Below, in pieces: positions 11,391-13,546 of a stretch of 14,452 nucleotides of DNA (positions are counted from its first letter, which is position 1; every line of letters begins with the position of its first letter). The position numbers were made by a program, and so were the translations under genes. Location of the stretch: the NCBI GenBank assembly GCA_037440825.1, contig JBBITJ010000012.1, forward strand, positions 1,170 to 15,621, in the 5' to 3' direction. The notes below the pieces were generated by a model, which was given only the letters and a program-made list of their open reading frames with translations, was not told the origin of the DNA and ran no database searches. This stretch comes from Candidatus Micrarchaeota archaeon (lineage in GTDB: Archaea; Micrarchaeota; Micrarchaeia; Anstonellales; Bilamarchaeaceae).

Positions 11391-11720
11391 TCATCTCCTC
11401 CCGCCTTCGTTCGGAGAGTGTATGGGCGTGCTGACCAGCACGTGCATCTCCTTCTTCCCGAAGAGCGGCTTGCGTTCCCCGAATATCAGCGATCTGTTCC
11501 CGTTCAGCGGGATCATGTAGAGCGTGTCGCTTCCGGGCTTGAACATCCTGAAGAACTTCCTCTCTTCCGTCTGCGAGTCCATGTGGTTCACTATTTTGTG
11601 CCCGTTGAGCTGGAACTCGATCTTCCTTCCGTTCGCCTTGTATCCGAAGACCCTGTTTCCGCTGGCCTCCAGCTTCTGCAGAACCACCACTTCGAAGCCC
11701 AGCAGCCGCTGCGCCATCAT
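11391..11720 (-). CDS. Hypothetical protein (109 aa) between pyrB and pyrI
   Basis: ATGA overlap with the pyrB stop and a 1-nt gap to the pyrI start. Its 3' end carries GGAGGAG ahead of pyrI. Confidence 0.7.
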   Translation of the reverse strand: MMAQRLLGFEVVVLQKLEASGNRVFGYKANGRKIEFQLNGHKIVNHMDSQTEERKFFRMFKPGSDTLYMIPLNGNRSLIFGERKPLFGKKEMHVLVSTPIHSPNEGGRR

Positions 11721-12639: not shown

Positions 12640-12726
12640 TAGATTTGCTTTTGCCCTCCGCGCCCCTCGTGCTGATGTGCCCGTAGTCCAGAACGCGAAA
12701 CTGAAAAGCAGGGATGAATAAGGTTT

Positions 12727-12799
12727 TGGGCTCACACGGATTCGAACCGTGGATTTTCTGCGTGTAAGGCAGACGTCTTAACCGCTCGACTATGAGCCC
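12727..12799 (-). tRNA. tRNA-Val(TAC), intronless, CCA not encoded
   Basis: Reverse complement GGGCTCA TA GTCGAGCGGTTAAGAC G TCTGC CTTACAC GCAGA AAATC CACGG TTCGAAT CCGTG TGAGCCC A folds into a full cloverleaf with anticodon TAC. Confidence 0.97.
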
Positions 12800-12808
12800 T
12801 CCCATATC

Positions 12809-12944
12809 CAGTCTTCGACATTTCGAAGACTGTCTCCCGAAAACCGTCTGTTTTCAGGATCCTTTTCTTTTAGAAAAAGAAAATATGTCGTCTAATTGAC
12901 GACAATTCTTCGCGATACGCGAAGAAGGTCTGAGGGTTTCACCC
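12809..12944. repeat. Array of six consecutive inverted repeats (hairpins)
   Basis: Stems at 12809-12832 (10 bp), 12835-12859 (10 bp with G-U on the minus strand), 12863-12883 (9 bp), 12886-12904 (7 bp), 12906-12926 (9 bp) and 12934-12944 (4 bp). Confidence 0.9.
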
Positions 12945-12988
12945 AAAAAGAAAACTAATTTAGAATAAGGAACGGAGAGAATAAAAAT

Positions 12989-13546
12989 CTAGAATCCGCT
13001 TCCGCGCACCGAGAACGGCTGGAGGAAAAGGTAGTGCTTCTCCTTGCCCTCGAGCTCGTTTAGTATCCTGTGCACGAACAGTATCGCCGGATCGGGAATC
13101 GAGTGGATCCTCGTCTTGAGGTCCGCGAAATTCTCGAATGGCTTCTTCTCCCTCTCCGCGAGCAGGAATTCGAGGTGCTTCTTGCCCACTCCGGGAAGGA
13201 GCTCGAGCTGGTGCACCCTCATGGATATGGGCGCGGCCTTGTTCATGAACGCGATGAAATCCTGCTCCCTTTCCAGCACCAACGACTTGAGCACCATGGG
13301 CAGATTGTCCTTCGCGCTCTGGGTGAGCTGGCTGAATGCGAGCTTGCCCTTTATCCGCTCTATTTCGTTGCGCTGCTCCTTGCCTATGTAGACCTTCTGG
13401 CCTATGGAAACCTGCGCGGTGGGCTTGAGGCTGGCTTCCAGAAGCGTGAAGAACTGGTGACCCACCATCTGGACCAAAGGTTCCCTCCGCGAATCCGTAG
13501 CCTTGCCTCTCGGCAGGTACTCTATTATCCAGGCATGTTCCTCCAT
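12989..13546 (-). CDS. DUF655 family putative nucleic-acid-binding protein (HhH)
   Basis: Motifs EEHAWIIEYLPRG, FTLLE, VYIGK..R..I, F.N.A.PIS.R.HQLELLPGVGKK, KPFENF.DL..R and RI..EL....K..LF. It lies downstream of rpo4, the usual archaeal context. Confidence 0.92.
   Translation of the reverse strand: MEEHAWIIEYLPRGKATDSRREPLVQMVGHQFFTLLEASLKPTAQVSIGQKVYIGKEQRNEIERIKGKLAFSQLTQSAKDNLPMVLKSLVLEREQDFIAFMNKAAPISMRVHQLELLPGVGKKHLEFLLAEREKKPFENFADLKTRIHSIPDPAILFVHRILNELEGKEKHYLFLQPFSVRGSGF

Follow-up and report, generated by a model that had tools for sequence, protein, structure and literature searches.

The window, the 14,452-nt stretch of DNA analysed here, encodes L21e, Rpb4/RpoF, DUF655, pyrB, and pyrI. 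On the minus strand the order is L21e, RpoF, DUF655, an array of hairpins, tRNA-Val, and pyrB. DUF655 (12989-13546, minus strand; Pfam PF04919, E 2.5e-56) is the last gene in the L21e-Rpb4/RpoF-DUF655 row and the upstream neighbor of tRNA-Val on the tRNA strand. The tRNA-Val(TAC) gene itself (12727-12799, minus strand) was called by ARAGORN and by Rfam (RF00005, 72.2 bits) and is intact, with the array abutting its 5′ side. The genome containing the window (G000 below) is a metagenome bin with N gaps, 875 kb in 45 contigs and 95.6% complete. It is archaeal, with an archaeal SSU rRNA match and a three-unit splicing endonuclease, the EndA match falling within a 396-aa open frame in the region G000:C1:49102-49371. 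There is also a candidate RNase P RNA, which covers the full model but, at 67.9 bits (E 3.5e-19), falls short of the gathering score, 84.

Six hairpins had been described in front of tRNA-Val in an earlier note made from the letters alone, and all were found there as inverted repeats. H1 (12809-12818/12823-12832, 10 bp), H3 (12863-12871/12875-12883, 9 bp), and H5 (12906-12914/12918-12926, 9 bp) are 100% complementary. H2 (12835-12844/12850-12859) has 10-nt arms that are 90% complementary, its single mismatch being C·A on the plus strand and G·U on the minus strand, as the note had it. H4 (12886-12892/12898-12904) has 7 bp, and H6 (12934-12944), read directly from the letters, is GGGT-ttc-ACCC. 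The spacing also agrees with the note, with gaps of 1–3 nt between successive hairpins from H1 to H5 and 9 nt between the edge of H1 and the tRNA-Val 5′ end; H5 and H6 are 7 nt apart. As had likewise been noticed, the 60 nt in front of the tRNA, being made up of H1 and H2, contain no TATA-like box.

The array folds far better than dinucleotide-shuffled sequence. For the 191 nt from 12800 to 12990, the minus-strand fold is −66.3 kcal/mol, vs. −43.2 ± 4.1 in shuffles (z = −5.66), and the plus-strand z is −5.41; on either strand, none of 200 shuffles did equally well. Near-equal values on both strands are the pattern expected of DNA palindromes. An assembly or amplification artifact might be suspected in a 45-contig bin with N gaps, particularly since repeats often break assemblies. 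Against this, Logan contigs from run X1 (probably the source sample, but assembled with a program other than that used for the genome) tile the array (12725-12897, 12873-12931, and 12902-13150) with no differences, and related composites are found in other genomes. The chance of an artifact is practically negligible.

A search of the array against its own genome with short-word BLAST (blastn-short) showed that it is composed of three nested modules. Module A is a ~58-nt repeat built from H3 and H6, reading CATAT-CC(C)TTTTCTTTT-loop-AAAAGAAAAGG-NCTGAGNGGTTCACCCC-AAAAGAAAAC. The earlier note had suggested looking for further copies of the hairpins, and G000 does contain them: module A is present seven times, five of these uninterrupted (C6:1007, C9:11478, C2:20473, C28:2269, and C28:6585). 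In the window, its left end CCCATATC (12801-12808, plus strand) is severed from the remainder by an insert of H1 and H2. H3, which together with three preceding letters reads TCC-TTTTCTTTT-aga-AAAAGAAAA (12860-12883), aligns with the six other G000 copies, and the right part (12927-12955) consists of GGTCTGAG, H6, and AAAAAGAAAAC. Module B (12884-12926, 43 nt) is made up of H4 (12886-12904) and H5 (12906-12926) and separates AAAAGAAAA from GGTCTGAG in module A, at a point where all five uninterrupted copies have AAAAGAAAAGG-NCTGAG. Module C (12808-12862, ~55 nt, with ends ambiguous by 1–3 nt) is made up of H1 (12809-12832) and H2 (12835-12859). It splits module A between CATATC and TCCTTTTC, where the uninterrupted copies have CATAT-CC(C)TTTTCTTTT, and it has the frame CCAGTC-NN-CGA-N4-TCG-NN-GACTG-TCTCC-stem-loop-stem-AGGATCC.

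The nested arrangement is not confined to the window. A composite of modules A and B recurs at G000:C17:10052-10146, 95% identical over 96 nt and with unrelated flanks, and the Logan contigs show both sets of flanks (those of the window, on C12, and those on C17). An already-invaded module A has therefore been copied as a unit. In two congeners' copies of module A (G007:C5 and G002:C150), an H1+H2-type insert occupies the CATATC^TCC site that is used in the window, and H4+H5 is missing. With one H1+H2 site used in three module A copies, and H4+H5 found in two, either site-specific insertion or recombination between copies is indicated. H4+H5 was seen solely within module A, which gives no sign that this unit moves by itself, and both inserted units are low-copy, at one or two per genome. 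The insertions in the window show no visible target-site duplication.

The same locus could be compared in relatives. From the DUF655 stop to tRNA-Val there are 189 nt in G000, including the hairpins. The array hairpins are absent from all four congeners with this locus assembled; the spacer is ~44–62 nt in three of them (G004, G001, and G005) and ~130 nt, of different sequence, in the fourth (G006). In a contig from a sister sample (X3) that also lacks them, the positions matching 12801 and 13004 are joined through 32 other letters in place of 202, with no differences in the tRNA and nine in DUF655. The empty site in the congeners and in X3 indicates that the array is a recent gain in this lineage; its repeated loss in the relatives is a less likely alternative.

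What remains of the ancestral spacer in the window (12956-12988, minus strand) includes ATTTTTATT (12980-12988, minus strand), likely a TATA-like box or T-rich signal of tRNA-Val, and a second, unconserved A/T-rich box, TTCTAAATTAG (12956-12966, minus strand). ATTTTTATT is found 0–3 nt after the DUF655 stop in G000, G004, G001, and G005, and ~35–55 nt from tRNA-Val in the relatives. It stands out as the likeliest TATA box of tRNA-Val, and if it still serves as a promoter the array would form a leader of ~160 nt.

The position of the array just 3′ of the DUF655 stop raises the possibility of a terminator or insulator, stopping read-through from L21e-RpoF-DUF655 into tRNA-Val or shielding the tRNA. 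The TTTTCTTTT tracts of module A, present on both strands, would fit this, and on the minus strand H4 with the TATTTTCTTT after it has a terminator-like score. However, there are just two terminator-like sites, vs. 1.1 ± 1.1 in shuffles; a spacer of 32–130 nt with the conserved ATTTTTATT suffices in the relatives; and the same modules are found inside tRNAs and ORFs, which a stop to transcription would damage. In archaea, moreover, it is oligo-T that termination requires, rather than hairpins. Such a role is very unlikely.

Hairpins of this kind are numerous in G000, where 184 perfect ones of at least 8 bp were found (raw count) vs. 52 in a block shuffle. The tRNA genes and the 150 nt on either side of them make up 1.8% of the genome, and hold 21 of 159 non-overlapping hairpins of at least 8 bp and 13 of 59 of at least 9 bp. 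Hairpins are thus enriched near tRNA genes, yet also found elsewhere. Their stems are perfect and largely unrelated in sequence, with free loops. Gene calls in the scripts were crude, with some arrays mislabeled as coding; four 7-bp "arrays" in coding DNA (C4, C24, C26, and C31:2367) look like chance and were set aside.

Some of the window's hairpins have identifiable relatives. The H1-type pattern AGTCNNCGA-N4-TCGNNGACT has 11 sites in five of the eight genus genomes; controls gave no hits, and neither did 53 genomes from 22 other genera. At 10 of the 11 sites the two N-N pairs are both complementary (TT/AA, GC/GC, or GT/AC). There are eight different loops, and the hairpin that follows one of the H1 type is wholly different between copies. 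The full module C frame is found at four sites in three genus genomes (G000, G007, and two in G004). In a five-row alignment of this module 95% of cells are paired, vs. 86% in shuffles (none of 500 reaching 95%), with both sides changed in seven of 20 pairs; slid controls gave 26–51%. The inner stem of H2, for example, is GAAAAC/GTTTTC in G000 and G007 and CAGGAC/GTCCTG in G004. Covariation in relatives, which the earlier note had put forward as informative, does exist, and in copies set in other contexts. The C·A/G·U position of H2 is also kept in four of the five aligned copies, again in other contexts, and is therefore best seen as an inherited trait of the module. That note had taken the wobble as favoring the tRNA strand, an idea that does not generalize: nine one-mismatch hairpins near tRNAs include two with the wobble in the tRNA sense, four antisense, and three with other mismatches.

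Module A is more widespread than the inserted units. In a family-wide search it turned up in 17 of 61 genomes, representing seven of 23 genera, and a single genome had as many as 18 matches. Copies from different genera are up to 97% identical, a level that may reflect constraint or recent spread. The window stretch, used as a query against 16 genomes from other families of the order, gave no match to module A; three of these genomes have exact matches of 21–25 nt to H3 alone. Among the 21 distinct sites displayed, 10 are directly after a tRNA T-loop (GTTCAAA or GTTCGAT), two in the anticodon-loop region, one abutting a tRNA 3′ end, two abutting a tRNA 5′ end in antisense orientation, and six otherwise intergenic. 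The copies in the window and at G000:C2, by a tRNA-Ala(GGC), are also antisense against a tRNA 5′ end. Abutment to tRNA ends is exact, at 0–9 nt in four cases, which may reflect a degree of target preference. Direct repeats of 20–30 nt flank two of the intergenic copies (L030 and L051).

The T-loop copies resemble introns. At 13 sites the insert was cut out in silico and ARAGORN was asked for a tRNA across the joint. A clean tRNA was obtained at five: Leu-TAG in G002, Leu-GAG in G001, a gene on C28 of G000, Ile-TAT in G007, and Cys in G020 (sites L032, L036, G000 C28, L012, and L047). Three sites were ambiguous and five gave no tRNA, possibly owing to further introns. By eye, G000:C28:6461-6675 is a tRNA-Leu(CAA) gene containing two introns, of which module A, at position 59/60, is the second; the gene has no Rfam match and is missing from the ARAGORN list. 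All four T-loop copies compared share a fold consisting of the T-stem, a 2-nt bulge, a 3-bp TTC/GAA helix, another 2-nt bulge, and an inner helix, CCCATAT/ATATGG(T)GG. As modeled, this junction is a relaxed bulge-helix-bulge, not the 3-4-3 form. Occupancy differs between species: Leu(GAG) has the insert in G001 and none in G000, within the same Leu-Gly tandem, and Leu(TAG) and Ala(CGC) both have it in G002 and lack it in G000. The window's copy is outside an intact tRNA-Val and is not an intron.

Such sites suggest that mini-palindromes could be a living source of archaeal tRNA introns. A mobile module landing in a tRNA gene would form, or bring with it, a relaxed bulge-helix-bulge cut by a broad-specificity endonuclease, and the copies at tRNA ends would be harmless by-catch. 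This idea is tentative, with somewhat less than an even chance of being right. The kept pairing and the tight link to exact tRNA positions could also point to a role in tRNA biology. Two other roles for module A were considered. A C/D-box reading fails by eye, with CUGA present and RUGAUGA absent. H3 as a portable TATA box for abutting tRNAs is a weak alternative: it is unlike the TTTAAAWA boxes before other G000 tRNAs, and its A/T-rich palindrome would center at about −24 to −26 in uninterrupted copies and at about −62 to −84 in the window.

Protein genes also contain hairpins related to those of the window, as distinct from the window copy itself. The TruD gene of G000 (Pfam E 1.7e-108) has a 93–96-nt in-frame insert of four hairpins, one of them H1-like with the same loop, which is absent from all seven congeners. 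A DUF63 membrane-protein gene in G000 has two hairpins flanked by a 12–13-nt direct repeat. In G004, two identical copies of module C are in frame in different ORFs, both encoding PGSSGRSPGETVAETSATG; by eye, one ORF encodes a small Cys-rich protein and the other a helix-hairpin-helix glycosylase-like protein.

These placements bear on whether the array does something as RNA. A functional structured 5′ leader, or a new small RNA serving tRNA-Val through stability, processing control, or protein binding, would fit the very strong fold, the G·U of H2 on the tRNA strand, the conserved pairing among relatives of H1 and H2, and the likely promoter upstream, from which the array may be transcribed. 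But the array is missing from this locus in all four congeners and the X3 contig, the fold is equally good on either strand, wobbles show no bias toward the tRNA strand, and homologous modules occur in other orientations and in coding DNA. Rfam searches likewise point to no known family: at gathering thresholds over the window stretch only the tRNA was found, and at E ≤ 0.01 over 19 loci with arrays or module A, only tRNAs and one SSU rRNA. A role of this kind is highly improbable. Among the readings offered in the earlier note, that of a novel ncRNA fares poorly, given the Rfam result, the unconserved locus, and an orientation of module A that is antisense here but sense in the tRNA introns. 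A structured pre-tRNA leader could exist in the literal sense, as a by-product, because the likely promoter is upstream of the array. The palindrome-cluster (REP/MITE-like) insertion is supported by the absence of the array in relatives, the recurrence of its modules in this and related genomes, and their in-frame relatives in protein genes.

Genes that might move the modules were also looked for. For G000, a first look gave no candidates for Y1 (PF01797), which is present in two of the eight genus genomes, and no match to TnpB (PF07282), present in four of the eight. In G003 the Y1 gene adjoins a tRNA, and the hairpins reported around it are unlike the modules. Viral contigs had no matches to the module A pattern. 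The hairpins have no unpaired GTAG or CGTC tag in common, the (A/C)GTC of the H1 type being part of a paired stem; an apical YCGR motif occurs in only 19 of the 159 G000 hairpins of at least 8 bp, and a given hairpin sequence has 1–4 copies. Neither module-level TIRs nor a partner IS, as looked for in a MITE, was found; there are direct repeats of 12–13 nt in the DUF63 gene and of 20–30 nt at L030 and L051. Copying could depend on a trans-acting enzyme absent from the assembly, or on recombination or template-switch copying.

It could be argued that no transposition is involved at all: foldback or template-switch repair would create the hairpins where they now stand, intrastrand correction would keep them perfect, and shared pieces would arise by ordinary duplication and recombination. 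Stems that are largely unrelated and perfect, with free loops, fit well with this, as do the complete difference between hairpins following the H1 type, the lack of any transposase found in G000, and the lack of a visible target-site duplication in the window. Formation in place does not account for the near-identical composites on C12 and C17, which are unlinked and have unrelated flanks, for the pair of identical module C copies in different genes of G004, for module A in dozens of copies across seven genera, or for the direct repeats at some inserts. It is a rather unlikely account of the array.

Taken together, the array is best explained as a lineage-specific nest of small non-coding palindromic modules that came in as DNA, on the stretch separating the promoter region from the tRNA-Val 5′ end, and that are REP/RPE-like, selfish-looking, and without a function of their own (probability roughly 0.7). 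A plausible history begins with the insertion of the ~58-nt module A, likely first, in antisense orientation against the tRNA-Val 5′ end. The H4+H5 unit would then have been placed inside it and the H1+H2 unit at its left end, at the site also used in the two congeners' copies. The modules would belong to a family-wide population of 20–25-nt hairpin units, whose stems stay complementary as their sequence drifts and which would survive where they are removed or tolerated: in the leaders and trailers of tRNAs, in their introns (at T-loop 59/60 or in the anticodon loop), in DNA between genes, and in frame in protein loops. This pattern of survival would fit insertion followed by purifying selection. 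In the window, the array is probably co-transcribed on the minus strand as a hairpin-studded leader of 60–160 nt, which RNase P would cut off tRNA-Val. Nothing suggests that the host benefits from it.

Striking as the structure in the window is, it is a false lead as a regulatory RNA. It does show that tiny symbiotic archaea, with <1 Mb of DNA, still carry diverse nested mini-palindromes, and that these enter the flanks and introns of tRNA genes and even sequence coding for enzymes. Module A, one of these repeats, doubles as a T-loop intron whose occupancy differs between sister species. The arrival of archaeal tRNA introns is called an open matter in the available part of a 2026 preprint on Asgard tRNA genes (10.64898/2026.10.13.758758), and the module A family offers a concrete, testable case. 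There are practical consequences as well: inserts can hide genes from tRNA finders, as with the tRNA-Leu(CAA) on C28, and can break assemblies.

Several known systems are similar in part, judging from the available portions of the papers cited. No description of modules like these in Micrarchaeota or DPANN was found in the literature searched, which was mostly outside subscription journals. Bacterial REP/BIME sequences are stem-loops of 20–40 bp that occur singly, as dimers, or in clusters, associated with RAYT and falling into GTAG- and CGTC-tagged families, the CGTC type being reported without a dedicated transposase (PMC3733652, in part). The modules here share with them the short stem-loops, clustering, compensatory stems, and some copies within genes. 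They differ in having no unpaired GTAG or CGTC tag, in being low-copy as hairpin sequences with many unrelated stems coexisting, in their archaeal host, in the absence of a Y1/RAYT gene from G000, and in their strong ties to precise places in tRNAs, intron sites among them.

Palindromic elements with coding potential, the RPE of Rickettsia and those of Methanocaldococcus jannaschii, are covered in a review (PMC2229807, in part, citing Ogata 2000/2002 and Suyama 2005). The likeness to RPE is one of behavior, with no sequence relationship expected: in-frame insertion into conserved protein genes (here TruD and the two G004 proteins), insertion into RNA genes (here module A in tRNA T-loops and the anticodon-loop region), and an apparently selfish, tolerated existence. 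RPE are single long stem-loops of 105–146 bp, unlike the 20–25-nt hairpins in nested 43–58-nt modules described here. Selfish palindromes of organelles, such as those of Volvox (PMC2670323, in part), are also short and have spread in non-coding DNA, but host and scale differ.

For tRNA introns, the closest parallels in the sections available are the transposing introns of the Thermoproteales, related copies of which are found in different tRNA genes (PMC4033280, citing Fujishima 2010), and the relaxed-motif introns at 59/60 of ARMAN-2 (Micrarchaeum), with an endonuclease that cuts them (PMC3239211, in whose main text the words hairpin and repeat each occur zero times). Module A resembles these systems in the similar intervening sequences in different tRNAs, the T-loop position 59/60, the relaxed bulge-helix-bulge junctions, here predicted, and the presence of a broad-specificity splicing endonuclease. 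Unlike them, it also has copies elsewhere than in tRNAs, both in intergenic DNA and against tRNA ends, as in the window, and is palindromic, with nested inserts. Small palindromes that nest, cluster, and enter genes are thus already known from REP/BIME and RPE, as are related introns across Thermoproteales tRNAs, to go by these sources; new here are the resolution of one array into three nested units and the link between module A and polymorphic 59/60 tRNA introns.

The leader upstream of the tRNA-Leu(TAA) gene (contig C18 of the genome holding the window, 15692-15760) and that upstream of the tRNA-Leu(CAA) gene (C28:6400-6460) are homologous, with a common layout of GGGGAAATCAAGGAAAAACCGC followed by a hairpin and then by A(T/A)GAGGTTTGTC. 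The hairpin stems differ by compensatory changes, AGGGGGAC/GTCCCCCT versus AGGGGGC/GCCCCCT. Hairpins of the AGGGGGA type occur elsewhere in one tRNA intron (C13:19-167) and in trailers on C35 and C15. The tRNA-Leu(CAA) gene itself (C28:6461-6675) was identified by eye and has two introns recognized in the same way, the first in the anticodon loop, with many GGAAC repeats, and the other, in the T-loop, consisting of module A, the roughly 58-nt palindromic repeat. This region had no match in Rfam at E ≤ 0.01 and was not among the ARAGORN tRNA calls; with the T-loop insert cut out in silico, ARAGORN returned a tRNA-shaped call, labelled Val-CAC with an intron.

Hairpin insertion is also seen in a protein-coding gene. 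TruD (tRNA pseudouridine synthase D; C2:28076-29473) carries an in-frame insert of four hairpins, 93-96 nt long, near C2:28340-28435, which is missing from all seven congeners (7/7); at the same spot, TruD of congener G007 has another insert, of GGAAC type. In the tRNA-Val orthologue of congener G005 (on its contig C7), the D-loop region is interrupted after position 15 by an insert of 46 nt, and BLAST aligns the gene in two pieces (tRNA positions 1-15 and 17-73); this insert is probably a non-canonical intron.

As to the genome bin, parts of C1 recur, little changed and with identical flanks, on C39, C40, and C41, which are probably strain variants retained in the bin. Three further contigs deviate in G+C (C42, 0.587; C43, 0.353; C44, 0.665; versus about 0.54) and may be contamination. 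Within the window, a 109-aa ORF on the minus strand between pyrB and pyrI (11391-11720) had no match in Pfam.

Short strand-polar repeats occur next to tRNAs genome-wide. Those in the window (12688-12708, plus strand) lie in the 3' trailer of tRNA-Val, which is on the minus strand. Of 42 tRNA calls, 11 had two or more copies of G[GA]AAC in the 80-nt upstream flank and 11 had two or more of GTT[TC]C in the 80-nt downstream flank, compared with 1.9 and 2.1%, respectively, of random 80-nt windows; the reversed motif reached two or more occurrences at only one of the 42 calls on each side. Repeats of these types also fill several tRNA introns and flank the in-frame hairpin inserts. At tRNAs, a role for the strand-polar repeats in leader-trailer pairing or as a signal is possible.
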